The notes beneath the pieces were generated by a model. The model ran no database searches and was not told the DNA's origin. It was given only the letters and a program-made list of their open reading frames with translations. The position numbers and the translations under genes are program-made. A DNA stretch of 63,923 nt, filler included, from Sluysia triapertura (Eukaryota): assembly GCA_046118255.1 (NCBI GenBank). It is 5 parts of 5 records of this genome, joined end to end, with 100 filler letters (N's around TTAATTAATTAA, not from the genome) between each part and the next. Parts side by side here need not be neighbours in the genome. Positions count along the whole stretch, not along the records: positions 11,781 to 23,946 come from JBJNIA010133289.1; 4 more parts are not named here. One strand, written 5' to 3'. Below are positions 2,509-58,796 of the stretch, in pieces. Numbering within the stretch: the stretch's first letter is position 1; every line of letters starts with the position of its first letter.

Positions 2509-3560
2509 ATGAATAAGTCAGTTTATCTTAAATTGTTTGTGCAATTTTTTCTCCAAACGATACCATTTCTATATACTGTATCTGAAAAACCGATTAGTAA
2601 TAGTCTCGTTATGCCGACTCCGCTACTTATTTTTAACGTTGTTTATGTTTTAATTTCATTGTTTTATTTTAACTCAAAATCATGCAACAATGACAAAACC
2701 ACGAAAATGATATGATTAGACTAAAATATTACAAGCATCCACCAATAGTAACAGTTCGTACTCGTTCTTTGATTATGTTCAGAGGTTGTAGTTATGTTGC
2801 AGCTGTTGCTTTAATTATAGTCAAAGATATGGATATATTTCGAATGAAGTTCTTTAATGAAGTCCATTAAACATATGGTACAGGTTTAATGGATACGGGT
2901 CTTGATAATTTTGTAATATTTATGGGTATATTTGGATCTAGTCGTCATTGGATTAGTAACAGAAGTATTCACAATAAAATGAAAGCAATGTTTTGCACAA
3001 TATATTCTTCTGTATTTTTACTGATAATTGGTTTTATTTATCAAACTATTCAAATAATTTTTGTTAATTAACAAAGAGAATTTTACGCATGGACTTTTAA
3101 CATATTTTATGTAATTTCCATTGTAAAGTTATCGGGTAATTTTATAAAATTGTTTTGTTTCAATATCATACCCTTTTGGTTCATATGTATATTTATCGGT
3201 GTTATTTTCGAAATTATTTTAACGGTTTTTGAGGTTAAGAGTAGTATAAAAACTTATAATAACCAAAAAGTTATGAATTTTTTTGAATCAAATGTGGAGT
3301 TGATTTTTTTGATTATTGGTTTGCACACGTTGTATTTTATGGGAGCTTCTATTGATCAATTTATTTTTAAAACATGTTCAAGATGTTCAGAAACAAAGAT
3401 GAAACCGACGTACCAAATGGCTTTGTCGATATTTTTTATTTCGTTTTTATTATCTCTTATATACTCACTTAATCAACATTATAATATAATAGAACCATCG
3501 TAGTGGAAACTGTGTAATTTATCTTATGATTGCATTTTTTCTGTACGATTGTAGAAATTA
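2509..3560 (+). pseudogene. PIGW: PIG-W/GWT1-like GPI inositol acyltransferase pseudogene (multi-pass membrane; stops and frameshifts)
   Basis: Collinear motifs across frames: LIMFRGCSYVAAVALIIVKDMDIF..*TYGTGLMDTG (cf. PIG-W AILAVDF..F..YGTGAMDFGVG), EFYAWTFNIFYV (cf. EYGVHWNFFFT), FFESNVELIFLIIGLHTLYFMG (cf. NANREGIISTLGY), EPS*WKLCNLSY (cf. SRRxANLxY). Confidence 0.55.
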
Positions 3561-7482: not shown

Positions 7483-7554
7483 TGGACTGACCAGGAATCG
7501 AACACAGGACCCTCGCTGCAAAGTTCGACTGCTCTACCACTGAGCTATCAGTCC
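7483..7554 (-). pseudogene. tRNA-like sequence / tRNA pseudogene with disrupted anticodon arm
   Basis: Minus strand: GGACTGA TA GCTC AGTGGTA GAGC A GTCGAACTTTGCAGCGA GGGTC CTGTG TTCGATT CCTGG TCAGTCC A. Perfect 7-bp acceptor stem, intact D-arm and A/B boxes; anticodon and T stems mispaired, so identity is uncertain (Ala-TGC or Cys-like). Confidence 0.7.
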
Positions 7555-9183
7555 CCTCTAACAGTTTTATTTTATTATTGTCAATTTTAGCAAATGGCAC
7601 TTTAAGCCTTTTTACCCCAACATCTCCGTTTGGGATCATAATCTTCAACATCTGTTCTCAAGGAACAACTACAAATTGAAAATTCCTTTTTATTTAAATT
7701 GAGTAATTTAAAACACGTTAGTTTATTTTTGTAAGGTTTTGATACTTGTAAGTATCGTACGCAAAATCCACTAAAAATCTTTTTTAAAGTTAAATGGAAC
7801 CTTATAACGGTTTCTACGCAAAATCAATTTAAAATTTATTGTAAAATAAAGAATTAACTTCAGTAGTTAATCTACGTTACAATTTTATTCCTTAAATTAT
7901 AATTATTGAATTTTTGTATAATTTTGATTAATATACATTAGTGTAAAAAGGTTTTGTTATTTTTGTATAATAAATAATTTACATAGTTTCAAAATCAAAA
8001 AATCACACGTATATCGAAAGCTTTATCAGAAGTTAATTCTGATAACATAAAATATTTATTACAAATCCTTTTCATAGGATTCACGAAAACTATTCTTTCA
8101 GTCAATACTTGAATTTATTCTTTAAAATAGCTCCAGAATTTAACTTAACTTTACTAAGCATTTAGGCACGCATTTAATCTTTAACTTTTTTGATTGCAAA
8201 AACCCAACGGCTAACCCTAACTGGTAAACCTAGTACGTTGGTGTCTCACGTTAAGATCTCTCTTTATTCTTTTATACTCTAACAATATCTTTTGTGCTGT
8301 TACTGTAATAAAGTTATTGTTTGTAGTTGGAACATGTGAAAAATAGAACATAATTAAACTGCGAAAATGAAGAAAAGTGTTCAATTGATTCTATTGAGAA
8401 CTATTTTTTGTCAAAACTATGAGATAATAAAAATAGATTTAACTATATTTAAAAATTATAAAAAGTTTTATTACATAAAATACATTGTTAGTTTTTGAAT
8501 TTGTTTAATTTTGATTTTTTAAAAGTGTATTTGTTAAGGTAATTTTAAGCTTTATAGTGTTAAAATATTTTTCTAAAATTATGATTTGTTTAACTATATT
8601 AATTTAACTACTTTAATTTTCAATTATCATTGTGCATTTTTTATATTAATTTATTTTTGTTTGAAAGTTAGTAAAATATTATGAGTTCTCTTCAGTATAA
8701 TGAAAATTACAACAATGAAGTTCTGAATCCGAATGCATTTATTCTGAATGTCCCAGTTTTAATAATATGCTGTATTTTTATACTTTACTTTACTATAAAA
8801 TTTAGGTTTTGCTGCGTTTGCATTTATTGCATGTATTATTTTTATAACAGTGTCAGTATTTTATTGGAAAAAACAGCAAGAACACAATAAAACAGATAAA
8901 CTAAATTATTATGAAAGTAATATTAAAAATTCTTATGTTGCATATCAAATGACTATATAATTTAACAGATCTCGTTTTTGATATTTTCTATTTTTATATT
9001 TATCTAATATGATGGTTTTATGTGTAGCTCAAAAATAGTTGAAGTACACTTAATACGGGGATTTATTTTTTAAAATGTGTGAATTATTATGGCTCCATAT
9101 TGCATTTATGCTTTATTTAGTATATTGAAGTTTAAGTATACATAATATGTTAAATCAAATTAATATGTATTAAAACATGAACT

Positions 9184-10419
9184 CTAAGCATGTAACCTAT
9201 TTTCGCATTGTTCTGAAAATGTTTTATATAGCATTTTCATTATACCATTTGCTAATTCACAACCACCAGAAGCTTCAATTAATTTAATAATAAACATGAT
9301 GTCATGTTTTAAAATTTCTTTTTGGAAGCGTTTACGTATGTTTTCATCAATTAATTCTCCGTCACCTTCTATCATTTTTCTAACAGTGTTTGATTTGAAA
9401 CCAATAATGAATTGGAAATAATATTTTATTAAACTCATACAGTTTATGACTATACCAAAATTGCACAATATCCATAAAGTACCGAAAATATACGAATTTA
9501 TAACATTCCATGACAAAATGCATTGTCCAATGTAAACTTGCTCATAGCCCATCACTCTTGGCCAGCGGCATAAAGTAACTACGGGAAATACATGTTCATC
9601 GTTTCTCATAAAAGCTGATACTACAGTATTCCAATTTAAACCAAAACTTTTTGACATAATTACTAATTGCAAACCAAGGCATACTACAAACAAAATTTTG
9701 ACCATTACGTACGATCGAAATAATTTTGAATGTGATTCACTTTTGACATTGAATATTCTTTGTACAAATGAAATTATCTTATTTTTGTCTTTAGAAAATT
9801 CCTGTTTCGTTATTGTAGCAAACTTGAAAAGAATGTCAGACATTCTTTTAGCTACATTACGTTTACTACTTTCGTCTTTATTTCGTACTTCAATTGCAGC
9901 GTTATTAAATGCTTCTAAATCAATTTCGGACATTTTCTTTGAACAATAATCCCACAAAATAATTGGTACATATAATATTAATGTCATACTAGGTATAATA
10001 AAAATTAACCATTGATAGTAATCTGGAAAAAGAAATTAATGAATAAATCATTTTTAAAATTGACATTTAATATTTAAAAACTTATTAAACTTACTGATTC
10101 CTTTTGTTTTCCAAGCTAATTCCCATTCTTCATTAGTTGTTGGCAGCTTTTGCTTATGTAAATTATACGTACCGGATACCCAACAATTTGCTGAAAATGT
10201 TTTACCAAAATTTATAGCATCTGATTGTATTAAACTATAACAATTCATTGGATCTGTGAAACTATGACCAAAAATGGAACCAGCTGTTAATGTTGCAAAC
10301 AGAACAAATAAGAATATATTATAAAAATCAGACCAGTCGTGCATACGCACATCATTTGTTTGAAATGTTTTTCGAATAGCGTTTATAAATTCGTTAATTG
10401 ACATTTTGTGTATTACCAT
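9184..10419 (-). CDS. inx: Innexin (gap-junction protein), 2 exons: 10419-10095 and 10022-9184, about 387 aa
   Basis: A GT-AG intron at 10094-10023 joins the two ORFs in frame and creates the innexin signature NYYQW. First loop PMNC..NCWVSGTY, second loop FPVVTLC..GQCILSWNVINSYIF, four hydrophobic segments. Confidence 0.93.
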
Positions 10420-11490
10420 TAAATTATACCTTTTTTATATTATTTGTTTTGCGTCATTTCCGTATTAAAAGTATTTCCTAATTTTTTGTCAATTTATAAA
10501 ACATTATAAGTCACTTTAAATCCAATTTTATTTGTTTAAATCATCCGGAAAGGGATTTCTGTGTCAGGCATTTTTAAGTGATCTAGCAAGACACGCGTTT
10601 CTGATAGTCATCTAAATTTAGCTTTGCTTCTAGGAAACTAGTAATTGTTTCTAATAGTGCGATTTGAGTGGTTAGTACGACCTTGTTAGGTTTTAGAGTG
10701 TTGTGTTGGTTTATTTACATTTCAGAGAACGATAATATTTTGTTAACTACAAACTATGGGAACGATAAATTATTAAAAAAATAAAGAAAATGTAATTTGT
10801 TGTACATGAATATATTTCAATTTGTATTGGTGATATTTTATTTAAGATATATCCCAAAGAAGAGGGCTCAGAAACCATGAATAAAATAGTAAAATATTGA
10901 CTGAGTAAAAGAGTAAATATTGAGCCTATCTTAGAAACGAATCTTTCGTACAGTCATATTTCGTTAACTTTTGAAAAAACTGTAAATTTAGGGTTAACAT
11001 ATTGTCAGAATGGAATAAGAGTTCCGTGGAATGAATTTTGCAACTTGGTGTTGAGTCGTCTTTATTTATAGCGACAAAGACTATGTTCTTGTGAATTTTA
11101 GAATTTTTATTATATTGATATTGTTCTAGTAACTTATATTCAATAATATTTATCTTTGGAATTAAAACTTAGAGTAACATTACGAACATAGTTAACATAG
11201 ATAGTTTCATTAGTTTGTATAAGTAGTTCACATTGGATAACCTTTAAGATATAGGCTAGAGTTTATTTCAACTTCAATACCTAGTAGTCAGAGTTTCTTT
11301 TAACTCCTATTAAGTGAAGTTTCAATAATTTATAAAATTTGTATTTTATCTTTATTATTAAGCTTTACAAGACCAAAAAGATCTGATTTTATTGACCTTA
11401 TATAATAATAAAAAGACTATTTTTTGAATATTAAATAGTAATTAAACAAATCAAATTTGTAATAAAGATAATCCGATATATAAGATTTAT

Positions 11491-11680
11491 TTAACCCTTT
11501 CAGCCCCGAATTTTTTTCCTTAAGATATATGGTGATTTATTGTCTTTATATTGGGTTGAGGAATAATTCATGAGCGTTTTTTTTCAAATTTATTTTAAAC
11601 AACAAAACTACAACGATTTAATCAATAATATACTCTCCGTTGTTGTTTACAACTTCCTCCCATCGTTCAATAAGTTTTTC
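11491..11680 (+). mobile_element. Possible piggyBac-type terminus, cut off by an assembly gap
   Basis: TTAA followed by CCCTTTCAGCCCCG; the other end is not visible. Confidence 0.3.
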
Positions 11681-11789
11681 NNNNNNNNNNNNNNNNNNNN
11701 NNNNNNNNNNNNNNNNNNNNNNNNTTAATTAATTAANNNNNNNNNNNNNNNNNNNNNNNNNNNNNNNNNNNNNNNNNNNNATATATATA

Positions 11790-11991
11790 TATATTGATCC
11801 AGAATATCAAAATGTCCATGTATTATGCCATTCATATGTATTGGTGCTCGTTCCACATTATAGATTTTTGTTTGCAGTGGATCCACGAAAACAATTTCCC
11901 ACGTATTAGCTCCCGTGTCAATAACAGATCGAATCCATCTATTATTAAAGCGTACATTTTGAAAAATGTGTATGTATTCCAGTTGAGACAT
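11790..11991 (-). pseudogene. Retropepsin-like aspartic protease fragment
   Basis: VRFNNRWIRSVIDTGANT fits the V-x-x-N-G-x-x-h-x-x-h-h-D-T-G-A pattern; runs into a gap. Confidence 0.5.
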
Positions 11992-12199
11992 TCATCATCA
12001 TTTTTACTTGTTTATCTATTAATGACTGAACTGAAGGCGGTTTATCACGATCCTTCATTTTTGGTTTAACTTTTAAAATTGACTTGTTAATTGTTCGGTT
12101 TCTTAATTTATATTCGTCGTTTCGTACATCAGTTCATATGTTTTTGAATCTAATTTAGTGTCAGTAATAAATTAGTGTCAGTAATTTTCATCACTTCCT

Positions 12200-13110
12200 A
12201 TGTAATTTTGGTGATTGTCAACGTTTAGTTAATTGGTATTTAATGAGTACTTCATCACCAATTTGAAAATTATGTTGCTTAGTTTTTTTATCGTATGCAT
12301 TTTTATATAAATCCTGAGAAAATTTCATCTGTAAGCCAGCGCGTTTTCATGCATCTGGTAGCCTTTCATGCATTACTGTTGCATATTCTGGTGTTTCCCA
12401 GCATTGTGATATTGGTGGTATCCAATTCAAATCTACTGGCACATTTGAATGACGTCCATACATTAAATAAAATTGAATAAAATTTGTAGCTGGATGCACC
12501 GAACTTCTATAAGCGAACAGACATGTTGCGCTATATTGATCCCAGTCTGACTGTTTATCATTAACATATGATTGTAACATGTTTATTAATGTTCTGTTAA
12601 ATCGTTCAACTAGTCCATCAGTTTGCAGATGATACGGTGATATCTAGATTCTAAGTATGTCAAATGTTTTCGCTACGTATTTAATTACATCACTAGTAAA
12701 ATTGGTACCTTGATCTGTTAATAATTTTCTTGGTGTGCCATATCTATAAATTATTTTTTCTACGATTATTTGTGCGACAGTTTCAGTTTTTTGATTTGGC
12801 ATCGTATATACGTCGGGCCACTTAGTTAAATAATCAACAAATAAAATAATATATTTATTTCCGTTAATAGTTTCTGGCAGTGGCTCAATTACGTCCATTG
12901 CTGTAAATTCCATTCATGACAATGATAGAGACATAGGTTTTAATGTCACTCTTGCCTTAATTCCTGTGTTCTTTCTTCTACAACATATTGAACAATTCTT
13001 ACACCAATTTTTAATGTTTTCTTCTAGATCTTTCCAATAGTATTTACCTTTTACTGTGGGTAGTGTTTTTCTCTTAGACAGATGTCCACCTAACTGCCCG
13101 TCAATTGCCT
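12200..13110 (-). pseudogene. Gypsy integrase (zinc finger, DDE core, C-terminal region), frameshifted
   Basis: GGHLSKRKT..YYWKDLEENIKNWCKNCSIC; AMDVIEPLPETINGNKYIILFVDYLTKW; LLTDQGTNFTS; YHLQTDGLVERFNRTL; DWDQY..LFAYRSSVH; YDKKTKQHNFQIGDEVLI. Confidence 0.95.
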
Positions 13111-13239
13111 GACTTTCATTTAATGTTCTTTCGCTAATGAATATATAATAAAAGCGGTCTCTTTATACTCTCTTTGATGTTTAATGATTTCCTTAGTGTC
13201 CTGTACTTTATGTGATATTGACATAATTTGTTTAAAATT

Positions 13240-13560
13240 AATATTTCCTTTATCATCTGCATTTGTTAAGCGTGACATACAGTCAGCGCCATTATTTTGT
13301 GAGCCTGGTATATAAATTACTTTTAAATTGAGTTCTGCTAATTTGTTAAAACACCTATTTAATCTACTAACCATATCCCTATGATTGTACATATGTGTTA
13401 TGGTTTGTCGTCTGTATATAAATAAACTTTTTGTCGTAATAGGTATTGCCTACATAGTTTCATGAATGATCTATAGCCAAACATTCTCTTTCTATTGTAG
13501 AATAATTCATTTCAGCTTTATTTGACCGTCAGCGGGCATATCCAACAACTGCTTCCAAAT
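13240..13560 (-). pseudogene. C-terminal half of Gypsy RNase H
   Basis: VVGYAR*RSNKAEMNYSTIERECLAI...TDDKP...SRLNRCFNKLAELNLKVIYIPGSQNNGADCMSRL. Confidence 0.9.
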
Positions 13561-13564
13561 TATT

Positions 13565-14490
13565 TTACATATATATTACATGTGGTGGTGGTGACGTTGG
13601 AGTAAAAGGATACAGTCCTCTTTTTTTGGCTTTCTTTAGTTACTTGATTTTCAATAAATCTTTGAATTTCTATGATTTCTTCATTTCTATTATTTTGTAT
13701 CGATTATAAAGCAATATTTTCTATTTGTTGCCTTTCTTCTGCGTGTTGTCTCTCTTTTCGTAATGCATTTATCTGTGAATTTGCATGATGGTGTAAAAGG
13801 TATTACGCTAGAAACTGATTATTAATTTCCAGGTTAATCCTGAAATTTTGTAAATTCCGACTACCAAAAATGCTTGAAAAATTATCCGTGATATTACTTT
13901 AATTATTATATACATTCCTATTAGTCCAGAAAACGCTTGTCCTAGTGTTATAAATTTCCCCCATATGTGCTTCAACGTGTCTTGTGCGTCTTTTTTAAAG
14001 TGATCAGGTCCCAATAGTAATTCCAAGTTTACTTATCCATTCTTTTCGACAGTTGCTTTGTCTGCAATTTCGGTTAATATTTTTGGGAATAATATTTCTC
14101 GCCAAGCCGCTTGAATGTCATCATTCTTATAAATGCCGGAATTAGGTATATTTTTCGTAGCTAAAAATTTTAATTTTCCCTTAAGTTCGGTCAATCCTAT
14201 AATTTCTGGAGTTTTCACCTGACTCCTCTGTGGTAATGATATCCACAAATTGTCATCTGTTCTATATTCGGTGCCATGACATTAGAACAATGCATTAATT
14301 TTGGTTTAACCTTATCGTTCGGAAAAATTACTCTTGTTACTGGTTCTAAGTATGTTTCTATTTTACCGTAGAGTATATGTAATTCGTTTGTGCACTCTTT
14401 AGTTGACCTTAATTGTACTTATAATTTTTTTACATTTATATGTGTATAGTACTTCTCACATTAATCGAGCAAATACTCCTTCGATTGTTG
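13565..14490 (-). pseudogene. env: Envelope glycoprotein, chuvirus G / gB-like (class III fusogen), C-terminal half
   Basis: EGVFARLM*EVLYTYKCK..VQLRSTKECTNELHI..YLEPVTRV..C..WISLP..NSGIYKNDD..EILFP..WGKFITLGQAFSGLIGMYIIIKVI (TM)..GLTWKLI follows the motif order of chuvirus-type glycoproteins (GEV..C, ECYNELPV, GIY, IMFP, W..F..FG..SAG..G). Confidence 0.8.
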
Positions 14491-14528
14491 TATTGTTTTT
14501 TCAGCTCCTCTGTTTTCTGATTTTCTTT

Positions 14529-14888
14529 TCCTTTAATTATATTTCGCCAACCTCCTTGTTCTTCTACCCATAATTTAGTTTTCTTATTAACAACATCTCT
14601 AACCTCATCTATTTGTTATTTGTAACCATTCTTTCCTCGTTACATTGGCATATAACGTATGCTAAAATTATTTTAAATTTTTCTTTATCTATCCCCTTAC
14701 TAGTTTGCTTATTTATCATCAACTTATATTTTTCACCATCTATAAAATCGCTAATATCTTTGTCTTTATATCTATCTTCAAATTGTCTTACTAACTTATT
14801 TATATACTAACTTATTTACTAACTTCTTATATTTATTAAAATTAGTAAACTTATCATATAAAAATGCATAAATCACTCTTTTAGTGTC
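14529..14888 (-). pseudogene. Bcl-2-like domain, frameshifted
   Basis: Reconstructed DTKRVIYAFLYDKF (BH4-like), LVNKLVRQFEDRY (BH3-like), YKLMINKQTSKGIDKEKFKIILAYVICQC (BH1 position, no NWGR), TKLWVEEQGGWRNII (BH2; WVEEQGGW at 14570-14547), in correct order and compact spacing. Confidence 0.6.
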
Positions 14889-14972
14889 TATTCGATTTCA
14901 TCATCGTTTTCGCAACCTATTTTTGATAAATAAATAGTATTTCTCACAATAGGTGTAGACATTTTATCATTT

Positions 14973-15612
14973 TCAGCTCTTCTTGGACCACCAGGTTTCC
15001 TTATCAATAGTTTCAACATGCTGATTCTTATTAACATTTAATATATAATCAGTAATTTTGTCATTTTCAACATTAATTCTTGCTTCATCATCAATATTAA
15101 TTACTTGTATGTCATCATCTTCCATTAACTGTTTTAACAACGTATGTGGGGACTCATTAATTTTTCCATTTATTTCATCTTTAATATCATCATTAATTAG
15201 ATTCTTATGTACAATTACTGCCTTTATCATTTCATTATGATCACCTAACGGGTAACCGTAGTCAATTAAAAATTCTCTAGGTTCTAAATACATGTAGTTT
15301 CACATCTACTACTGTCGGGTTATTTAACTTAAGTATTTCTATTACATATTCTGCTACTATTGTAACAAGTAATTCCATTAATACGTTTACTAATTCTTCA
15401 AGTAATACATTAATTTTCATTAAAGTTTCAGGTTGCTCTGGCTTGTAAACTAAACCTGTTTTTCTTAACAATTGTCTCGCTTTAAAACTATGTGGGTTAT
15501 CTGCCTGACTTAAATAACGTAAACACGACCTAATATTTTGTCTATTAAACAAATCTAAATTTATCTTAGAAATTATATCCAAATTTTTATCGGTATTTTT
15601 ACCTTCAGTCAA
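14973..15612 (-). pseudogene. Unknown retroelement ORF of about 210 aa, split by one frameshift
   Basis: Overlapping ORFs 15612-15277 and 15293-14973 with protein-like composition; no motif recognised. Confidence 0.5.
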
Positions 15613-15699
15613 ATCTGAGAGAAATTAAGCCCTTAAATGTTGGTTCTATTGTACTACAATCATGAATTGGTTTTTCTTATTCAGTACCCGAAATAATTA

Positions 15700-17200
15700 T
15701 TGGCTCAGTATCTGAGAGTGTGTCATTAATTGATTCCTCCTCTGAATCAGAAAAACAATCAATGTCACTTATTGTTACTATTGATTTCTCAACCACTATC
15801 CTTCGCCTATTTTCTTACAACTGTTTCAGCATATTTTCTTTCTTCTTCTAGTTGTTGAGCACTTTTAATTATCTTTGATTTTCGCTGCTTTTCCTCTAAT
15901 TGTGCCTCTTTTTTCCTTTTACCTTTCTTTTCTTTTTTCTTTCTTTCTTATTCTCATTATTATCTATCTTTGCCCTAAGAAATTCTCTTAACATCTCTTA
16001 TTCTTCATTCGTTAATCTTCTTGGATGTCTGTCATACTCTTCATCATAGTTACAATTTATTTGTCCTTCATTTCTATCCTTATTAAATCTTACTCTTCTT
16101 CGTGAAGCTTGTCTGGCATTCTATTTAACTCTTGCGTAAAAGTATTTGATCTTAACTTACTACATTTTCGGGCATAGTGTCCATGCCTTCCACAATTATG
16201 ACAAACTGTATTTCCTTCTATATTTGTTCTTGTTTTATAATTATTTTCGTTTGGTCATGCAGGACTCTTATTTCTTATAGAAAAATTATTATTATTGTTA
16301 GATTTCTTGTTGAGCAACCTTGGTAATGGCGTTGTTCATATTCTCTTGAGCTTGTATTATTCGGTTGTATTTTCTTAAATCCTCCATTGTTTCTATCAAT
16401 ATTAATATAATTTCTTCCTACATTATTTCTCTGTGTGAAAATATTCGAATTTCCTCGAAAATTATTACTGTTGCCACTATTATTGTCATTATTACTACTA
16501 AAACTATTATCTTCAAAAGAACTCATATACATACGCTTAGGGAATTCATTAGAATTATTTCCTATATAACCTATCATCTATATAACTTATATTATTTCTT
16601 CTTTCATTTCTCGTACGTTCAATGTTTTTTAATTTTTTAACTATAACCATAAATGGTAAATCGTCAATTAAACTTACATAAATTTGTAATTCGGACTTAG
16701 CCCATTTTTAAACTTATCTATTAATAATGTTGATTCCTTTCTACTCTCTGAAATTTTAGCTCTGGACGCTAAACTTTTAAGTGCACAGGCAAATTCATAA
16801 ATTATTTCCTGAGGTTTCTGTATCCTTATATTAAGCATCTTTGATAATATTTACCTATATCTTCTATAGCTATTTCCTCAGTAAAAACATTAACAAATAT
16901 ATTCCAATGGTGTTTATATTCTTCTCTTATTTCTTTATAAGTCTATATTGCTGCACCAGTTAAATAATATTGAATCCTCTTAATTTTATCTATTGCCTAT
17001 CCATTTGCTTCAGCTATGCTATCAATTTCAAAAAAAATCACAAAGATTTTCCTCGGCTCCATTAAACTTGCGCATTTCGGGAAGTAATACTATTGGCTTA
17101 ATGTTCTGAGTCAGTTGAGACATAGTCTCAAATTCTTCAAATGGAACTGGTGAGTTACTTCTTAAAGTTCTCTTAAATTTCTTAGTTTTTTCTTTATTAT
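15700..17200 (-). pseudogene. gag: gag with CCHC zinc knuckle and charged/low-complexity tail
   Basis: MRKFNGAEENLCDFFEIDSIAEANG capsid-like start; Asn-rich linker; CHNCGRHGHYARKC (CX2CX4HX4C) at 16203-16162; K/E/R-rich segment downstream. Confidence 0.85.
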
Positions 17201-18220
17201 TATTATTACTATCTATTTTTAAAACTTAAACGTTAATGTCTATCAATAAAATTCAACGTAAACAAAAATCAAATTCAACTTAATGTAAACTTAAATAATA
17301 AACTTATCAAGTAATCAAGTAATCTCAAACAATAAAAATTACTTTGTAAACATGAAAATATTAAACTTTGCTTCTTGAACTAAAAAAATTATCTTATTTT
17401 CTAAAAATTGCTTTCTTTTCTAAAATATTATTTTCTTTCCTGAAATCTTGTCTTGTTAAAAATTTATTCTGTTTTCTTCATCTAAAATCTCAACTATTTA
17501 TATTAATTAAATCGTGGCCATTTTGAATCTTACTTGTATTATTCAAATTGATTAGAATAAACGATATTTACAAAAATATTGAAATTGTTATATTAAAATT
17601 AAATAAAAATTCTTAAAATTAATGTTTATTTTTTTAAATTTATTTTTTAGGTTAAAATTTGTATTTTGTTAAAATTAAAAATTCAAAAATAGTTAAATTA
17701 ACATTCTATTAAAATTTATTTTATTTTGTTATATAATAAAAATAATTAATTTAATAAAATAAGATATACAATAATTTAATAAAATAAAATATACAAAATT
17801 TTATATACACAAATCAAATCGCATAAATTAAATAATCAAATTTTGCCTCACCAGTATGCAAACATAAAAATGTAAAACCAAAAGAGTGACTTGTAACATT
17901 TATTAGCAGAATAATGAATATGTTAAACATTCTTGCAAAACAAGATGACGAATTGCAGTATATGACTATTAACAATGGTGATTAAAAAATGGCGGATTTA
18001 TGATTTAACTGCAGCTATTTGTATAAGACAACAGCCAATCATTTTATCCAATCTCACTACTGGCTGAAATGGTTTCTTTTTTTTATTCTATTAATATAGA
18101 TTGTTTTTTGCATTTGTGAACAATTAAAGTATATTGATTTATGATAGTTTTTAGCTTAATCATAAACCCTTAGTAAATTATACATTAATGCTGAAATTTA
18201 GTAATATACTGTTTGGATAT

Positions 18221-18360
18221 AGGCCTAAGGTGTCATGATGGTAGTAGTGACATAATAAAATAAAATTGCTAGAATGGGGCTGATAGCGCAGCGAGAGGTC
18301 CCGGGTTCGATCCCAGGTCTAACAATACGATAAATAAATAAAGATTTAGATCACCAAAAA
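18221..18360 (+). repeat. Second, internally deleted copy of the tRNA-like repeat at 7.43-7.61 kb
   Basis: GGGGCTGATAGC..GCAGCGAGAGGTCCCGGGTTCGATCCC with shared 5' flank (TGAC-ATAATAAAATAAAA-T-G-TAGA) and 3' GTCTAACA. Confidence 0.7.
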
Positions 18361-21300: not shown

Positions 21301-24179
21301 ACTTGTCGAATGGAAGATCAAAAACTGGCCGTTTTAAGTTTTTCTATAATGGTAGCAAATCCTTACACATAAATCTACAGAAGATAAACATTAAAAGATG
21401 GCTCTTTGTCTATAAAAGACAACCCAAACTGGCGAATGTTCCAGATATGGCAAGAATTGTAGATACTACCACGGATTTTACGAATTCAAATATATTCTTA
21501 GTTATCCAGCAAATATCAATGATTATTACGATAGAATGAAGTATCTCTTATCAACCTTTAGAATCAAACTAGACATGCAAAATTCGTGTATTAGTTATTC
21601 TAATATTATCAATGATAAATGTACTAACGTCAAATAAGATCAAGTGATAAAAGATGGGACAGAAGTAATTTTATATTTTGTTTCGAGTTACGTTGATTCA
21701 ACTCAATTTTTATACTTATATTTTTTAATTGAAACTTATGAATACATGATGTGGTTTCAGAAATTGTTAAAACAATGTTTAAGTAAATTTAATTCTTATA
21801 TAAACATAATTAAAATAAATAGTTTTAATTGTTATTTTCATTTTTTCTTATATTCTGAAATATTTAAATTAAATTTAGTAATAAAGCTTTTAATGAAACG
21901 TAATTTCAATATTAATTTTCAATTTTTGATAACATTTTTTAACAAAAGTAAATTAATTTTATTAATAAAGAGTTTCAATGTGAAATTTATTATAAAAATT
22001 ACCAAAACAAATACCAAAATAGCACAATGTATCCAGAAGTTCGAAGTAGTGAAAAGACAGTTGTCATTCACAAGAAAGCAGACAGAGAGAGAATATCTTG
22101 ATTTATTTAATCTTTTCCATCACTACTTGATATATTACTATGATCATAAAACTACCAAGATGAAATTTATAAATTCTTTCATTATGAACGTTTCGAATAA
22201 TGCATAGTTTATATTTTAAATTATACAGGAATTTGCAGGAAAACGTCAAATCACTGAAAGATTACGAAACATTTAAGAAGACAACGTTCTTTCTATTTCA
22301 GAATGATGCACATAACGTCTCTTTGAGTTCTTATTTTATAATAGATATTACCTTTAAATAAATTAATTTATTATTATTATTGATACTACACAAAAATGAA
22401 AAATTGCTTTTAATAACAAAATCGGTACTTCCTTTAGATTCTATTTGTAATTTTAGTAATAAAAAGAAAATAGAATTAATTAATATAAAATAAAATTAAT
22501 AAAAATTAAAATAAGTGGAATAAACTTAAAATAATAAAAATATTGTACTTACAATAAGAAGTATTATGTATTATTAAATTATATAATAATAAAATATTTA
22601 GTTTGTAAAAAAAATTTACTCGAGGAAATAATAAATTTTAAATTATTTTTTAAATTAAATTATGTTGATATTGTATGTGAATAAAGATTTATTAAACGTA
22701 ACTGACTGAAGTAGCGCATAAAATTAGCATTGTCTATAAATTATTATTTTCTATTATTAATAAATTATATTTTAATTTTTTAAAATTATTTTATTCTACA
22801 TTTTATTATAAATTTTATTTTACTAACTAAATTATTTTGTAAATTTATGTAACTTATTTATAAAATTACACTTAAAAATTTTAAAGTTATAATAAAAATA
22901 TTTGTTAAAATATTTTAAAATCATTACTTCCTGTTTTCTTAAATTAAATGAACTTTTAAGTAAAAAAGTAATAAAATTTCGAAACAAAGTGCTTTAATGT
23001 GATATTCAGTTCAATTAACAATTAATAATTTTGTTTTAACATATTTATTCCAATTAAATTATGTTTCAGAGCTCAAAAAATGAATGACTTGACTCAAATC
23101 TAGGGTTTTCACGCTATTTGATCAGCCTAACTAGCTTTTTATTATCATTTTTTAATTTTCACTCTATTTCAATAATAACTAAATAATAATGCTTTAAAAT
23201 TTGACTTGTGTGGTGGCCAACCAACATTTTGGAATTTTTATTTTAACAAAATATATTAAAATCACACTTCAGAACATCTCACAATTTGTAATACCATCAA
23301 ACAATCTAACTTGAAATTTTATATCATCCAAATCATACCCAACATTGAAAATCATCAAAGAATTATTTTTAAAAATTAATTGAAATATTTTAAATTTAAT
23401 TCAACACAATTCGCATAAAATCACATTCCATTACACTTTAACTATTTTACATCTAAACCTTTGTACATTTTATTTCTTATACTCTCTCTAAATTTTAGAG
23501 TGAGATATTAATATTAAATAATATTTAATGAGATATTTTGAAGATAATTTAGACAATTCAATATAAAAATTTTAAAATTTGGTTTGCATTAAGGGCTTGT
23601 TACTAACGTTTGATTTTGATTTTATACTTAATTTTGAAGATGTAATTTTAATTAATAAACTTGTTAGATAGATTTGCGTTTCATCAATAAGTGAATGTCT
23701 GTGTAGCACACTTGCGGTCGTATGTAAGATTAAATCAAAGATCGTCAGTACTCTATCGAGTTTGGTTAAATGTTTAAGCTTATTTATTTTAAAAGTTTAA
23801 TAAAGTTTGTTAATTTCGTTGTTATCGTAAAATGCTTTCGTAAATATAGTAAAACTTGGTTCAAACTTATTGTAAGAATGTATATAATTTTTATTTATAT
23901 TTTTAAATTTTTGAAATTTTTAATTGTTAAAAAATTTATAATAATANNNNNNNNNNNNNNNNNNNNNNNNNNNNNNNNNNNNNNNNNNNNTTAATTAATT
24001 AANNNNNNNNNNNNNNNNNNNNNNNNNNNNNNNNNNNNNNNNNNNNTTTTCTCTTTCATTATTCTTATTTCAACGAAGTTTATAATACTTCATCTGTTAC
24101 TTCTCATCAATTCTTTCTTCATTTGTAATTCTATATATATTCTTTACTCGTCTCTTAATCTAAAGTTGGGCAATCCCAA

Positions 24180-24236: not shown

Positions 24237-26639
24237 GAAAATAATTAATGAATTTTATTGACTTTTATCGTGATGAAGTGTACTTTTCGGTAACTAGGTG
24301 CTTAATTCTATTTTAATTCATTTTAGTAACAAATTTATAACAAGTATATATAGAAATAAATACTAATTTTAACTAAAATAAAAAATTGCCAAAAACTTCT
24401 TATTAGTTTTAACAACTAAAATGTAAAAATCCATTAAATGGCGACAATTCTCTCAGCAAGCAACTTACGTTTGCAATGGTCAATTTTCCGTTTAAAATTA
24501 GCAACTCTATTTTATTTTCAATTGTAAGTAAATAAAAATATGATAATTTTTGTTTTAGTAATATTATTTTAATCGAAATTATTGTTTTTTATCCAAATCT
24601 ATTTCAATAATGAAAAGATATTATATTCTACGAAAATGTAATCTATATATTTCTGGGTGATCAAAAATTTTACATATTTAAACACATATTTAGAACATTC
24701 TGTCATTCGAATGACTTACCTATGCAAATATTCATCTAAATTGTTTTTTATTGCTTAAAATATTATTGATGCAACTGGATAATTATTATGTTTCATTTTC
24801 TTATGTTCCAAACTGAGTTCATTAGAAATAAATTTTAGCATAATGTATATTGAGTAAATATTTCTCTTAATTAAATTAAAATTTTTAATTGAAATAAATG
24901 TTATTTCCAAAGACCGCTGTAATATTAAAACAAGATATTGAAATATTCAATAGCACAAATAGTTCAAAATTTATTTAATTGTCACTTATAAAGTGCTTAT
25001 TTAATATTACAATAATTTGAATTGTTTTATAAGTTCCATACTTTTTAAAATTTATCAAGTTTTATAAAAAAGCATATTTTTATCATTATGATGATGTTCA
25101 CATGTGTTCTAAATTAAGGATTCATTCGATTATTATCCCCTAAAGATAAACCAAAAGCCAAGATAATATATTTATGGAAAATAGCTACTATGGCATGTAA
25201 ATAAAGAAAATTAGATGTTATTAAAATTTATGGGATGCATTGTCCGCCTTAAAACTCCAAAATATTGAACTAATACAATAAACTAGACACTAATAAATTA
25301 ATATTAGGAGAAATTGGAAATGTAGATGTAGGGAAATCACATCGAAATATCCATACTTCATCACATAAAAACATTTCACATATACAAAGATCATTAAACA
25401 AACTACTAAACTCATTCAAAAATCAAACATAACCATTGTATATAATAATCATGAACTACAGCTATTGTTATTATAATTCAAATCGTATTAAACAATATAT
25501 ATAATAATTATAGTCATTATTGTTGTATAATATGATTAGCAAATAATAATCTTTATAATAACTTTTGTAATAAATTTCATAGTAGCAGCACCAACATCAT
25601 TATTCTAAATTGTACAATAATTACGTTGTTCTTATCATTATTATTTCTTTTATCCTTATTATCAATCTTTCTTCTTATCCTTTCAACTTCTCCAGTTTAT
25701 GTATTTATATATATTTATGTATATATTTATTTACGTGTTGATCTACTTATGATTATAATTCAACAATTGATTTATTCAAAATGGATTTTGTTCGTAATAA
25801 CAACGATTGCGACATGAATGCGCTTTTACCACTTAATCGCTTATATTTTAATTTTACAATAGCACAAAATATCTTATCAATGACAATTATTGTTCATTGT
25901 TTACAACATGGAACACAGCCAGATTTATGCTATTTCAAAGTTATCAAATAGTTAATAAACTGCAATCTGCAAATAATCATGTAAACACCACAAGTTGTAC
26001 AATATTGGTTTGTGATGAATTTTATGGTAAAGAATTAAATAAAATTACTAATGAAATGCAGAATTCTAATCAGCTAATATTGATACCATGCACTGAAAAC
26101 AAATTTGCTAAAATTTATATCATTAGAGCGAGACTTGCAAAAATATCTTATCACAGCAATTAAAACAATTGAGCTGCAAATCAAGATCATTATGTATAAA
26201 TGTATTTCTAGTATTACCAAACTATCCAACATCTCTACTATAATTCTAAATAGTAGTATTGAAATGAAATCCAAGTCAAATTTCTGTCACGCTTGTTTAT
26301 CAATAAACTCTTATTATTATATTAATTTACCAGTGGCAAATATGAGTTTATTAACTTCAATTTATAATAAAGAGGCTAGTCTTAAGAAGATAGAATATTT
26401 AGATATATTTGAAAACATGCTCATTCTTCAAAGTGCTTTTCAAAAGCTCTAAATTATGGATATTCTAATTTTAATAAGCAAATGAATTTAACAATTTTGA
26501 AGGCATATTTCGTAATGCATCTTTCAATTATTCTTACGTATTTGATTATAATAATATATTTATTTGTCAATTCAATCAATGTTTTAAAAAAGAAATTGGC
26601 AGTATAAGTTCAAACGGGAAAATTCGGTTTCCTAAACTT

Positions 26640-26800
26640 AATGTTATTTCAATTTATTACATTTTTGTAATGCAACAACCGATGAACAATTATAGTGGCT
26701 TTTGTGTAGATTTACTAGAAGAAATAAGCAAAATTGCTGGGTTCAAATACATTTTAAAAATATTTTCTGCTTCAAAACCATATTGGACAACCGGATTTAT
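26640..26800 (+). pseudogene. Ionotropic glutamate receptor S1 ligand-binding fragment
   Basis: FVMQQPMNNYSGFCVDLLEEISKIAGFKYILKI matches the iGluR Y-x-G-[FY]-C-[IV]-D-L-L-x-E-I...GF-x-Y motif; no pore or S2 exons seen downstream. Confidence 0.7.
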
Positions 26801-26895
26801 TTATACATTATCTAAAATAAATTGAAATAAAATTATTTTGATTTAAAAAAATCAATTTTTTGTACGTACTCATGGTAAAACTTAGACAACCAAAA

Positions 26896-41555: not shown

Positions 41556-41654
41556 NNNNNNNNNNNNNNNNNNNNNNNNNNNNNNNNNNNNNNNNNNNNT
41601 TAATTAATTAANNNNNNNNNNNNNNNNNNNNNNNNNNNNNNNNNNNNNNNNNNN

Positions 41655-41729
41655 NGGGTTTGTCGCAATTTTATTATCGCGTTATACGAAATCGCGTAAT
41701 TGGGGGTCGCGTTATACGGGGTCCGACTG
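41655..41729 (-). mobile_element. Tc1/mariner-pogo type terminus, cut off by a gap
   Basis: Reverse strand reads TA CAGTCGGACCCCGTATAACGCG with a repeated CGCGTTATACG motif. Confidence 0.65.
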
Positions 41730-48308: not shown

Positions 48309-49099
48309 TATAGTTCACATACGCATATTTATTTTTGTATATGTATAAAATTGTAAGAAATTAAATATCCATTTATTTGTAATTGTTTTTAAATCCAAAT
48401 AAGTGATATTCGCTGCATCTTGTTTCTGAAACAGAATATAAGGCGTCTAAAAAATTAATCAGGCAATTTTTAGAAAGTTTATAAATTGAAATTTGAACTA
48501 AAACTTCAATTTCCGATTTAACCAAAAAGGAAATAAGATTTTAGTTGGATAATACAGAATTTTTATACAGAAGATGAAATACTATATCTATTATGACTGT
48601 GTACTTAGTAACCTAAAGGCATGAAAAGAATTTGTTATTAAAGATGATTTGGTTAATTATTAATTATCACTTAATAATTATTAAATAGTTATTTTAATAT
48701 CGTAATCTTATTTTAGTTAATTATATTGAAGAATCAAATGAAATATATGAAAATACAGAAACTTGTGAAATCACAAAAGAATCTTTTAACAAATCATCTA
48801 GTTCCTTATCTAGTGGTCGTAATAGCAATCCATATGGTGCGCAATCTAGAAACTTCGATAGCAACCCATATGATGCACAATCTAGAAACTTCAATAGCAA
48901 TCCATATGATGCACAATCTAGAAACTTCAATAGCAATCCATACGATGCACAATCTAGAAACTTCAATAACAACCCATATGGTATATCATCATCTAGGAAT
49001 TATAACAACCCATATAGTACATTGCCTAGTGTATATAATAATGAAGATAATAACAGTAACAAACAATATAGTTACAATAATAACCGATATACTGGTTAG
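47847..49099 (+). CDS. 3' exons (47847-48012, 48060-48242, 48717-49099) of a low-complexity Asn/Ser/Tyr-rich protein; 5' end not located
   Basis: GT-AG junctions are phase-compatible; the spliced frame is open to TAG at 49097-49099 and includes (NSNPYDAQSRNF)n. Confidence 0.7.
48821..49018 (+). repeat. 36-bp coding tandem repeat, about 5.5 copies
   Basis: AATAGCAATCCATATGATGCACAATCTAGAAACTTC units. Confidence 0.9.
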
Positions 49100-52000: not shown

Positions 52001-54544
52001 ATTCGAAATACTTTTTATGCATCTAATTCATATATAAATATTTGTGATTTTGTAATTATGTAATTTTAGGATATCCATCACATTCTGGTATTTGAAATCT
52101 GGGGTAGTGTGTTTATAATGTTCAGTGACTGTAATATTTGTCCAATCATCTTTTGAATATATAAAATTGTTATTTTATAATTACTACGAGTTATATATGT
52201 ATTGAAACGAGTACATTAAAGTAGAGATAAAATAATAAATATCTAAGAAAAGGAAAATAGGTATGAGAATGTATAATTAATTTAATTTATAAAATACAAT
52301 AATTTATTTGCAACACACGAATTATTTAGAATTAGTTTATTTTTATGTACATGAATGAATACACGTATGCAATAAAGAATGGAGTGTTAGATGCCTCTTA
52401 TGAAATTATTAGATGTTAATTTTATTAATAATTCTTGTGCGCAACAAACATTAATTTTTAACCAACAAAATAAAAAAGCAACTGGTAATTCCTTAATTTT
52501 TGCTAATGAAACTGTTTCATCAAAGACATTAAATTATTCAAATTCGAATATAAGAGAAATAACTATGGTATTTTTGTCATCTATTGAGTTGAAAATACTA
52601 TAAAAAAATATTCAATGGACAAATAAAATAGAATTTAATTATGATTATTTAACTTAAGAAAATAAAAAAGTTGAAATTTCTAAAATGTCAAACCTTATTA
52701 CAAAAACGAGGAAATAGTATGAACAAATATTATCCAAATATTAGTAAAGTAAAGTGTGTAGAAATTAGCTTATACTCAGATTAAGTTACTAAACAAATTG
52801 ATAGTATGAAGTAGAATAATAAGTCGCAATTTTTCCTCATAGGGTTTCATCTTTAGTAATGGAGTTTAAATAAAGTGAATATTGAAATGTACAAATGCAT
52901 AAATATCTTTTAAACAGGAATTATTTAAACAAATAATAATTCAAATATTTTTAAACTTGTGTTTAAAAAATTTTTAAGTCTTATAATACCTTAAAGGCCT
53001 TTAGATCATTGAAGTGTTTTGTAAACTCTTAAGCATTTGAGAATTACTAGAATACAATCTGTGTAAATAATTGTGAAGTTATTAATTGTAGTGGTAAACC
53101 TCATAAGTTAAGATTAAAACAAACCTTCTTAAAACAACAATACTCACAACAACATCTTTCAAACATAAACATCCAACAATAAATTAATCCATATCTTAAC
53201 ATTCCCAACTCAATAAACTCTTACANNNNNNNNNNNNNNNNNNNNNNNNNNNNNNNNNNNNNNNNNNNNTTAATTAATTAANNNNNNNNNNNNNNNNNNN
53301 NNNNNNNNNNNNNNNNNNNNNNNNNATGAAATGCAAGATTGATACTATTCCCGAAAATAATAATAATAAGTAAAACATTTGATAAATTACTACTAATTTT
53401 TAAATAAGTTATTTATATTTATATATATTCTCATCTTTAATTTAATTAATCAATACAATCGTTGCTTAGATATATACATACATTTCCAATAAAAAATGTA
53501 ATTTGTCTATAATTTTCCAGTACGATACATTTTTTATATAAATCAATATGTAAAATAATTAAAATATTAAAATTTGTATTTTGTTATAAATCAATTAAGC
53601 AAAATTAATTTATTTACCTTGTGCTATAAAAATATTATTTAACTGTACAGTATTTAGTTTTTTACCTTTGTCATTTAATATTGGCAGAGTTATTTTTCAA
53701 AGTGAAAACTTTCAAGAGAAAAAGCACATACTTTGGCAGTAATTCTACCTTATTTGTAAATCTGGTTCCGAGAAAAATTTATGCAAATTTAATTCACTCT
53801 AAATATATTCAAATTTGGATCGAATTTCTTTACTTTGAATATTTAGTAAATAAAATGCAAACTTTTTTTATAAAATACTTATTTTTGTCAAAGAATAATT
53901 AAGTGATACCAAACATTTGCCGACGCTCATCAAAATGCTGATGTTCCTCAGAATATTTTTTGGGAATATCTAATTTAATACCTACAAAATGTAGTTTTAA
54001 GAATATATTTTGTCTTTTTTGATAATTTAATATTTCAATAAATTGATATTTTAATCAATTAATAAATCAATTCGTAACAGTTCATAAATTAAGATTTTAT
54101 TTCTGTTTTTTGTGATTTAATATTTAAACAATTAATTAAAAATACATTTTGTAATCGTTTTATTTTTAAAACTAAAGATACATTTTGTCACAATTTAATT
54201 AAATAATTATGTAGTAATTTATAAAGTCTAATAAAGTTTATTCTAATGGTAATAGTAAATCTTTAATCTATAATAAATTTAATTAAAATAGTAATAAATT
54301 TGTTTTAATTGTAAAAAATGCGTAGTAATAAATTTGTAATAAATATATCTAATAAAAATATAATAATAAAATGCGGATAAAATGCATCGCTGATTAATAC
54401 GTAAATTGAAAAAAAGCAATAAAGACTCAAAAAGAAAAATTTTGAGTCAAAATAATGTTAGCCTGCAGTCACATTGATTTACAACAGGATTACGCGAATT
54501 TTTAGGCCAGTTCAATTTAGTGACAAAACAATAATTCAGTTTTA

Positions 54545-55860
54545 ATTGACTTCAGCATTATTGGGCACTGAAGATTGTCCTGAATCAAGATGAAATAGAG
54601 TCAAAATAAAACTTATAAGAGTATTAAATGTTTATCAAGAAAAAATTTTAGTTACAACATTGGTTAGAGAATGTTTAGTAAAAATGTCTGTAGTTATTTT
54701 GTATTGCGGACATCACAGTCACTCTTCGATAATTGATATATCAAATGCATTAAAACCATTTAAGATATTACCAAACAATTGCCGTGACGCTTTCCAAACT
54801 GGATATATTAGTTTAAACGAAGGAGACAAATTAAGGATTAAAAATAATGAGAAAATAATTTATAACGTCAGAACCGCTGGTAATTTATTAATATATGGTA
54901 CTTATGAAAGAGGTTTAATAGAATATGAATGAAAAATTTACCATAACGTTGTAGCTCAAGAAACCTATGTAGTAAGTTTAAAATCTTTTAACGAAAGTTT
55001 TAATTTAGAAAAAGGTACTATGATGTCTATACCATTTTGAAAAAGTGATCAAACAAGTTGTGATACCGGTGAATCTATTTTGATATACGAATTGGAAAAT
55101 TATCAGTGTCAATTAATATTTTTGAAACAAATTAAATTTCGGGATTCATGTATCAAAATGAAGATGAATTGGCAATAGAATAAATAAATAAAAACAAATT
55201 TATAACGATAATATAGATATACCGGAAAGAAAAAGACTTAATGAAATGGAAACTTCGGCAATTTTAATGGCAAATAAAGAAGAAGAGGGACTAATATTTA
55301 TATCAAAAAGTCAGTAATCAGATCTGGGCAAAAGATTACAGAAACAAATTACCAAGAGATGTATTTTACCGAAAAACCAATACTTCAAGCCAAGAAAGGA
55401 ATAGATACAAAAAATTTACAATTAAATACATATTTTAACAATATAATTGATTTTTATTTCATTTAGGACTTAGGTCATTAGAAAACGTTTACCAGCTATG
55501 ATAGCTAGAGATTGTCAATTAAATAAAGAAATACTAAGAACTAAATTAACCCAGATATAGTAGTACCATTACTTCCATTGATGGTGAAGTTTTATATACA
55601 TACAAATGTAGAAAAGTAGAAGTACAAATAAGACAAGAAAGCGAATGTACTAATGAATTAGCAGTAATATACAATAATCAAAATACTTATTTAGAACCAG
55701 TTAATAGAATCATTATGCCAACTAATAAACTTAAACCAAAAACTTTACACTGTCCTAATGAAATATCTCCCGAATACAAAATTGATGATATCTTTACCAC
55801 ATAGAATCCAAGTTAAAACTCCAGAATGATTCACCTCTAACTATCTTAAAACCTAACTTG
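54545..55860 (+). pseudogene. env: Second chuvirus G / gB-like envelope glycoprotein pseudogene (ectodomain)
   Basis: LLGTEDCP..RECLVKMSVVILYCGHHSHSSII (cf. chuvirus-type YCGMHSH)..CRDAFQTG..GEVLYTYKCRKVEVQIRQESECTNELAVIY..YLEPVNRII..LKPKTLHC; directly alignable with 14.2-14.5 kb. Confidence 0.8.
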
Positions 55861-58413: not shown

Positions 58414-58796
58414 GTATTGATGTAATGTGGACAGGTCCTAAAGTCATTTCTAAAAGTATTTCAGAATCCAGTATTGAAGAATTGTTTCTGGTTCTTCAGC
58501 GTTATCCTGTTATCTGGGATAATCTTCATGCTAACGATTATGATCAAAAGCGTCTCTTTCTGGGTCCTTATTGTGGACGAAGTGGTAGTTTGTTAAATAA
58601 ACTTCGTGGAGTGATGACAAATCCAAACTGTGAATTTGAAGCTAATTTTATTCCTGTTTACACAATGGCACATTGGTTTAACAGTAATTTGAAATGCATT
58701 GATAAACAAGACGAATCCAATAAGGAACAAAATGAATATGATCCAAAAAAAGCACTGGATTCTGCAATTCAATCATGGATGAATCATTTGTATAAG
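58414..58796 (+). CDS. OGA: O-GlcNAcase (GH84) internal exon
   Basis: [54 protein letters not shown], bounded by a TTTTTAG acceptor and an AAG|GTTAGT donor. Confidence 0.93.

Follow-up and report, generated by a model that had tools for sequence, protein, structure and literature searches.

The env-bearing locus in the window (the whole 63,923-nt stretch of Sluysia triapertura DNA analysed here) is very probably a single decayed Ty3/gypsy-type GAG-ENV-POL insertion of Burro-like design that has been internally deleted, and its env-before-pol arrangement is, judged from the domain order of its relatives, the native order of the element's family. Profile matches, all on the minus strand, bear out the order from gag to integrase proposed in an earlier note. 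The locus runs from gag with a zinc knuckle through an accessory region, a Bcl-2-like remnant and the C-terminal half of env to a C-terminal RNase H part and integrase, after which comes a possible protease-like stub. That note had placed the domains within 12200..17200, but the element continues past 12200 to the assembly gap at 11780. Reading frames are broken throughout the window copy by stops, frameshifts and two deletions. The features are as follows.

17842..17858, minus strand: candidate LTR end (CA) and PBS-like TGGTGA, weak
16680..17180, minus strand: gag capsid-like region, interrupted by stops and frameshifts (relatives' gag profile; upper end set by eye)
16156..16206, minus strand: CCHC zinc knuckle (PF00098, E 0.0023)
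15219..15600, minus strand: accessory region, possibly a helical and ubiquitin-like module, weak (relatives' profile, non-significant)
14500..14910, minus strand: Bcl-2-like remnant, spread over frames (relatives' domain profile)
14483..14500, minus strand: putative deletion junction 1, from the Bcl-2-like linker to mid-env (landmark distances)
13733..14482, minus strand: chuvirus/gB-type (class III) env, C-terminal half and membrane-spanning region (PF24664, E 1.9e-18)
13565..13732, minus strand: post-env linker and deletion junction 2 (landmark distances, read-derived contig)
13255..13564, minus strand: RNase H, C-terminal part (PF17917 and RNase H profile)
12197..13162, minus strand: Ty3/gypsy integrase with zinc-binding, core and C-terminal parts and four in-frame stops (Pfam, relatives)
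11782..11970, minus strand: possible post-integrase aspartic-protease-like stub (E 0.033, relatives' profile)
54522..55830, plus strand: another env remnant from this family, distinct from the first and keeping the N-terminal half (PF24664)

The gag profile built from relatives matches the capsid-like region at 17038-16835 (E 4.3e-6) and 16850-16680 (E 6.2e-7). The one zinc knuckle detected in the window copy scores under Pfam's cut-off for zf-CCHC and corresponds to the knuckles of relatives L002, P0127 and P0180. Between this knuckle and env lies an accessory stretch of about 1.6 kb, whose match to the relatives' profile of a helical and ubiquitin-like module, the best obtained, is non-significant (E 0.12-0.4); direct BLASTP of the accessory region against L002 does not support a ubiquitin-like module. 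The module of L002 itself sits between gag and the Bcl-2-like domain and matches PF00240 ubiquitin (E 0.0047). At the candidate LTR end, CA-n-TGGTGA occurs at 17858-17848 and the same start is found upstream of the L003 ORF, the pattern being derived from the window site itself and too short to exceed chance. No LTR-sized repeat is present in the window, and a search for LTRs in relatives L001 and L003 found none.

The Bcl-2-like domain named in the earlier note holds for its last helix (14618-14517, with a GGW motif), which matches the relatives' domain profile (E 2-3e-5; hhalign E 2.4e-6) and puts a Bcl-2-like domain immediately before env. The middle part, though collinear with relatives, is weakly matched (E 0.13), and Pfam gives no Bcl-2 match on the window itself, so that one helix, with a weakly matched remainder, suggests the assignment here. 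The homologous domain of L002 is predicted to adopt the Bcl-2 fold (five-sequence model, pLDDT 79.6): Foldseek returns Bcl-2-family rows throughout (prob 1.00), and superposition on Hydra Bcl-2-4 gives Z 12.9 and rmsd 2.9 over 134 aligned positions. This model supersedes a first one built from three sequences (pLDDT 51), for which Foldseek rows were non-significant. An ESM Atlas search with the Bcl-2-like part of P0177 returned only a 0.77 cluster.

The window env covers positions 367-616 of the 653 in PF24664, and a search for env relatives gave 93 matches. A stop codon lies at 13567-13565 and RNase H homology starts at 13564. The earlier note thus gave the positions of this abutment correctly, but the stop is not a natural env terminator, because env of intact relatives continues in frame into a protease. 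RNase H matches positions 28-82 of 105 in PF17917 just under the cut-off (E 4e-5) and covers positions 59-159 of 165 in the relatives' own profile. The integrase carries Integrase_H2C2 (E 5.6e-11) and rve (E 2.8e-9) domains, is 50-57% identical to env-before-pol polyproteins and groups with polyproteins carrying Ty3/gypsy-type domain annotation. At 11970-11905, a VIDTGA stub is the window's best match to a profile of the post-integrase protease-like domains of seven relatives, with no Pfam protease match on the stub. The assembly gap at 11681-11780 cuts this stub, and the 3′ end of the element runs into the gap. The second env remnant matches PF24664 positions 36-192 and 370-470 (N-half profile E 3e-56) and shares 68% nucleotide identity with 14204-14468. 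As the earlier note had stated, RT is missing: an RT profile from eight relatives, run over the entire window, finds no trace of it (best E 1.3).

The earlier note had offered a gag-accessory-env-pol lineage as one alternative, and the relatives bear it out. In all 11 distinct proteins with both env and pol domains, each a single ORF, env comes first, a count that was drawn from 381 proteins of at least 300 aa after setting aside 32 near-identical cluster members and that sees in-frame env fusions only, such that a separate downstream env ORF would escape it. The comparison of domain order proposed in that note gave env after pol in none (0/11). Among the closest integrases (51-57%) are six long polyproteins with a near-complete PF24664 domain ahead of protease, RT, RNase H and integrase. 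The DNA of L001 and L003 was also inspected. L001, a metagenome locus, encodes Bcl-2-like, env, proteases, RT, RNase H and integrase within a single frame of 3426 aa and lacks an env farther downstream, and L002 runs from gag through knuckle, ubiquitin-like and Bcl-2-like domains to env. The single ORFs of relatives span 2,700-4,000 aa, and two clade members, P0009 and P0124, have ankyrins after their integrase. In the integrase tree the window falls inside a 23-row clade (support 98/97) that includes eight env-first rows; in the env tree it sits among those relatives again (SH-aLRT 84, unstarred). IMG/VR holds no env relative, and its pol relatives are distant only (26-30%, 10 loci), without env or Bcl-2 matches.

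Landmark distances are far longer in relatives than in the window, in agreement with the earlier reading of the two abrupt junctions as deletions. From GGW to GEVLY, 3/3 measurable relatives have 409-444 aa and the window about 33 codons; deletion 1 is accordingly estimated to have taken about 375-410 codons (about 1.1-1.2 kb), corresponding to the env N-terminal half. From TWKL to the RNase H landmark, six relatives have 732-1372 aa and the window 98 codons, from which deletion 2 is estimated at about 630-1270 codons (about 2-4 kb), comprising the protease(s), RT and the start of RNase H. These distances leave out P0172 and L003, where the pattern falls at the wrong place, and P0126, P0175 and P0177, where a landmark is missing. 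Protease and RT are present in the window's closest relatives, and the missing RT is decay of the window copy, not a feature of its design.

The other origin considered in the earlier note was a fusion of tandem or nested elements by deletions. In such a chimera, an env lying 3′ in one gag-pol-env element would have been joined to pol from a second one. This is very unlikely: env follows pol in no relative counted, the relatives are collinear, and gag and the Bcl-2-like domain precede env just as in L001 and L002. The locus reads as one element, not a fusion, because the integrase tree and the env tree set it among a shared group of relatives. Inter-copy recombination is made possible by the many diverged copies in the host (6,279 contigs, most less than 95% alike); a recombinant of two same-family copies would leave the order unchanged.

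That the junctions were created by misassembly of collapsed repeats is extremely unlikely, even with a high-copy family, an assembly of short-read character that has a gap at 11681-11780, and a junction 1 that is not bridged among the eight contig pieces listed. A separately assembled read-derived contig crosses junction 2 from 13486 to 13923 without a difference at depth 22 (its source, run X1, may be the window's own sample), and family order and orientation are preserved at both junctions. Other exact read-derived contigs have depths of 9-22. With junction 2 real in reads, and with the element keeping its gag end, a candidate primer site and the end of integrase, the doubly deleted form might instead represent a non-autonomous subfamily copied in trans by intact helpers. 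This too is quite unlikely, since the spanning contig has single-locus depth and the second env remnant in the window keeps its env N-terminal half; the summed depth at 13582, only 128 versus thousands nearby, points weakly the same way, equally low values occurring elsewhere.

In the single-insertion reading, the intact design would be one long polyprotein, running from gag through accessory domains, including a Bcl-2-like fold, to a gB/chuvirus-type fusogen and protease(s), and continuing with RT, RNase H and integrase before a closing tail. In intact members, signal peptidase and protease would cut env free of the polyprotein, enveloped particles may form, and the Bcl-2-like domain might damp host apoptosis. 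The window copy itself is most likely an inert fossil: it lacks RT, has half an env and carries stops in its integrase, and therefore cannot make its own machinery. It has the capsid-like gag with CCHC knuckle and the RNase H ahead of a gypsy-type integrase typical of Ty3/gypsy elements, and a gB/chuvirus-type env between gag and pol as in gB-type GAG-ENV-POL elements; it lacks a protease and RT located after gag and before RNase H, as well as uninterrupted gag, env and pol frames. Because RT is absent, the locus is classed among defective derivatives rather than autonomous Ty3/gypsy members.

The env-before-pol architecture seen here is real and already published, not new; the order that the earlier note called unusual has been described in planarian Burro (PMC6431247) and in three phyla (PMC13524379). 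It is possible, though doubtful, that the host lies outside the flatworms and that the locus and its intact relatives mark a wide and active clade of single-polyprotein elements of Burro type that extends well beyond planarians. If so, enveloped retroelements with their own apoptosis regulator would occur across invertebrate phyla, the clade combining Bcl-2-like and ubiquitin-like domains with multiple protease-like domains, an env of gB type that precedes pol, and membrane-anchored post-integrase tails; a non-flatworm host would be a modest range extension of the Bcl-2-bearing type. An O-GlcNAcase exon used to place the host drew 1,105 matches, the best 120 of which scatter across numerous animal groups at about 46-65% identity and include no close named relative. 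The locus itself is an ordinary fossil whose worth is as a pointer, linking an AT-rich invertebrate host to an intact Burro-like polyprotein clade in public metagenomes. The predicted fold lends structural support to a BCL2-like domain annotated in Burro by sequence so far, and the compact natural relatives (2,700-4,000 aa) suit study of in-frame env processing and of the Bcl-2-like role.

Among known systems, chuvirus-glycoprotein-bearing BEL/Pao elements were reportedly found in mosquitoes by Dezordi et al. in 2020 (PMC7642597). They share the env family (PF24664-type) with the locus but belong to a different retrotransposon superfamily, the window integrase grouping with Ty3/gypsy-type polyproteins.

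GAG-ENV-POL errantiviruses with HSV/gB-type env are described from Nematoda, Bryozoa and Platyhelminthes (Chary and Hayashi 2026, PMC13524379), a study that covers intact elements only, has no occurrence of Bcl-2 or Burro in its main text and cites Sacco et al. 2022 for gB-type GAG-ENV-POL elements. Like these, the locus combines a Ty3/gypsy pol with a gB/chuvirus-type env placed between gag and pol; unlike them, the window copy is defective. By eye, the S. mediterranea env row in the supplement of that study shares the motifs VYQESD, TPVLMS and TNY with the window's relatives.

A close description is that of the giant gypsy-like Burro/GYPSM1 elements of planarians, given as gag-Ubl-BCL2-env-pol (Arkhipova and Yushenova 2019, PMC6431247). 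There, one giant ORF of about 4,900-5,100 aa carries gag, env and pol, with a mononegavirus-like env in frame between the other two and a BCL2-like domain immediately before it, and includes MATH, BIR and ankyrin domains; decaying Burro fragments are noted in Dugesia japonica. Compared with Burro as so described, the window copy has a short accessory region and one knuckle, is deleted and broken, and, decayed and truncated as it is, gives no Pfam match to MATH, BIR or ankyrin. The locus is classed as Burro-like, not as Burro, the likeness being drawn from the published description: as in Burro, a gag with CCHC knuckle is followed by an accessory stretch, a BCL2-like domain just before env, and an env that lies between gag and pol.

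The window is AT-rich animal DNA (~24% GC), and between the gap at 11780 and ~17200 the pieces named in the earlier note, from gag through the 'unknown ORF', Bcl-2-like domain, env C-half and RNase H C-half to integrase, are present on its minus strand. Scans with Pfam (run on single frames, with stops replaced by X) and with profiles made from relatives give the following features of the element.

17038-16680, minus strand: gag (relatives' profiles)
Element, minus strand: zf-CCHC (Pfam, E 0.0023)
Element, minus strand: env, PF24664 Monjiviricetes fusion glycoprotein, profile positions 367-616 of 653 (Pfam, E 1.9e-18)
Element, minus strand: RNase H, profile positions 28-82 of 105 (Pfam, E 4e-5)
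Element, minus strand: Integrase_H2C2 and rve (Pfam)
11970-11905, past the previously drawn lower limit of 12200: protease-like stub (weak, E 0.033)

The stub weakly resembles the post-integrase protease-like domain of five relative proteins (P0007, P0009, P0010, P0014 and P0122). The env N-half is absent from the element at 11780-17200 by a profile built from relatives, and reverse transcriptase (RT), already reported as missing, is found nowhere in the window by the relatives' profile (best E 1.3). The env stop said to abut RNase H is present at 13567-13565, with RNase H homology from 13564. Every frame of the element is broken, with 4 stops in the integrase frame alone. The 'unknown ORF' may, from its sequence, correspond to the helical and ubiquitin-like module of the relatives, the match being not significant.

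An integrase search retrieved a distinct group at 52-59% identity; general gypsy elements reach ~40%. In a set of 52 long proteins (1,650-5,250 aa), six of the nine best integrase matches contain a near-complete PF24664, and all six place env ahead of protease, RT, RNase H and integrase in a single frame. Both P0128 and the more distant P0131 start with gag. An env search of 1.84 billion representatives gave 93 matches, topped by long polyproteins; protease follows env in 9 of 11 scanned env matches, and P0174 shows a weak Bcl-2 match (E 0.00096) immediately ahead of env. When 381 fetched proteins of at least 300 aa were scanned, including ~120 unrelated host-enzyme matches, env came first in all 11 distinct proteins matching both env and pol, a count that excludes 32 near-identical cluster members and detects in-frame fusions only. 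In several clade members the aspartic-protease-like domains number two or three, and some of these lie after integrase.

Three relatives were available as DNA loci. L001 encodes in a single frame a Bcl-2-like domain, env, three protease-like domains, RT, RNase H and integrase; its downstream ORFs contain no env, and instead encode an exonuclease-like protein (10617-12107, plus strand; RNase_T, E 1.4e-5), possibly an accessory gene of the element, followed by a coiled coil. L002 reads gag, knuckle, ubiquitin-like and Bcl-2-like domains, an in-frame stop and then env; the stop (3058-3060), which separates the gag-Bcl-2-like ORF from the env leader and through which P0168 reads, is either a mutation or a programmed read-through site. 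L003 has gag, env, protease, RT, RNase H and integrase, without Bcl-2. Long unannotated tails follow integrase in P0003, P0006, P0008, P0011 and L001. They combine a hydrophobic leader with beta-rich repeats and a membrane segment at the C-terminus, features that point to a second surface protein within the polyprotein; in P0006 and L001 a region of this type also lies ahead of pol.

The earlier note had left a choice between an unusual gene order and fused elements. The window's integrase falls inside a clade of 23 rows (support 98/97), 8 of them env-first, and its env joins the integrase's relatives (unstarred support); P0128 and P0172 stand apart from it in both trees. The spacing from GGW (Bcl-2-like) to GEVLY (env) is ~33 codons in the window versus 409-444 aa in three relatives, and the membrane region of env is separated from the RNase H landmark by 98 codons versus 732-1,372 aa in six. 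The element is therefore missing ~1.1-1.2 kb and ~2-4 kb, respectively, in agreement with the two deletions previously proposed. Judged by these sequence comparisons, the pieces belong to one element carrying two deletions. A second env remnant (54522-55830, plus strand) keeps the N-half and is 68% identical to the element's env over their overlap, with no adjoining gag, Bcl-2-like or pol signal by Pfam and profiles.

The public sequencing run X1 contains 64% of sampled words and may be the very sample from which the window derives. One X1 piece covers 13486-13923 with 0 differences and a depth of 22, comparable to that of the remaining exact pieces (8 listed of 6,542 aligned); it crosses the env-RNase H junction, which thus exists in reads. 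The Bcl-2-like to env junction at 14490 is crossed by none of those 8. The 6,279 X1 contigs that align to the window are mostly <95% alike, which suggests that the family is large and diverged in the host, summed X1 depth being no copy number.

The relatives' Bcl-2-like domain matches Bcl-xL by sequence profile (E ~0.001), and the clear match of the window's remnant to that domain is confined to the last helix. The L002 domain, modelled from five sequences (pLDDT 79.6), retrieved Bcl-2-family chains in all listed Foldseek rows (prob 0.98-1.00, best E 0.0056). It aligns with Hydra Bcl-2-4 at Z 12.9 (rmsd 2.9, 134 aligned), and ranks 1-33 are all Bcl-2-fold chains ahead of the first unrelated row (Z 6.2), the tool cautioning that helical folds may reach such Z from arrangement alone.

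Beyond the observed order, homology, deletions and decay, the way intact relatives are built, together with what is generally known of Ty3/gypsy elements, suggests how such elements would work. In intact members, the element's protease would cut the single polyprotein; env, which carries a hydrophobic leader and a membrane anchor of its own, would pass into the secretory pathway; and the Bcl-2-like domain would most likely bind BH3 proteins, protecting the host cell. The window copy cannot be autonomous because it lacks RT and half of env.

Elsewhere, 18221-18320, lying shortly upstream of the element, is tRNA-like and 78% identical over 72 nt to 7483-7609, where ARAGORN calls a tRNA that lacks a clear anticodon; the two are probably a SINE-like repeat. 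Further features are listed below; the gaps with their spacer are assembly artefacts rather than sequence features, and the three host genes are of use in placing the host.

9184-10434, minus strand: divergent innexin, host gene (Pfam domain at 9184-10035)
26478-26825, plus strand: glutamate-receptor-like exon, host gene (by eye)
58389-58826, plus strand: O-GlcNAcase exon, host gene
48785-49000: 36-nt tandem repeat within a 133-aa frame
11681-11780, 23947-24046, 41556-41655 and 53226-53325: 100-base gaps with a TTAATTAATTAA spacer mid-gap

The feature singled out in the earlier note is thus real and was correctly read; its architecture, however, is already in print as the Burro-like GAG-ENV-POL arrangement, and the locus is a defective copy. 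Chary and Hayashi 2026 (PMC13524379) describe GAG-ENV-POL elements with gB-type env from Nematoda, Bryozoa and Platyhelminthes and credit Sacco et al. 2022 for the nematode elements. If the host lies outside flatworms, a Bcl-2-bearing member would widen the known range of the Burro-like design. Compared with GAG-ENV-POL elements of this design, known from the planarian Burro/GYPSM1 elements, the locus is a decayed derivative of a type that would work alike, and we describe it as Burro-like rather than assigning it to Burro proper.
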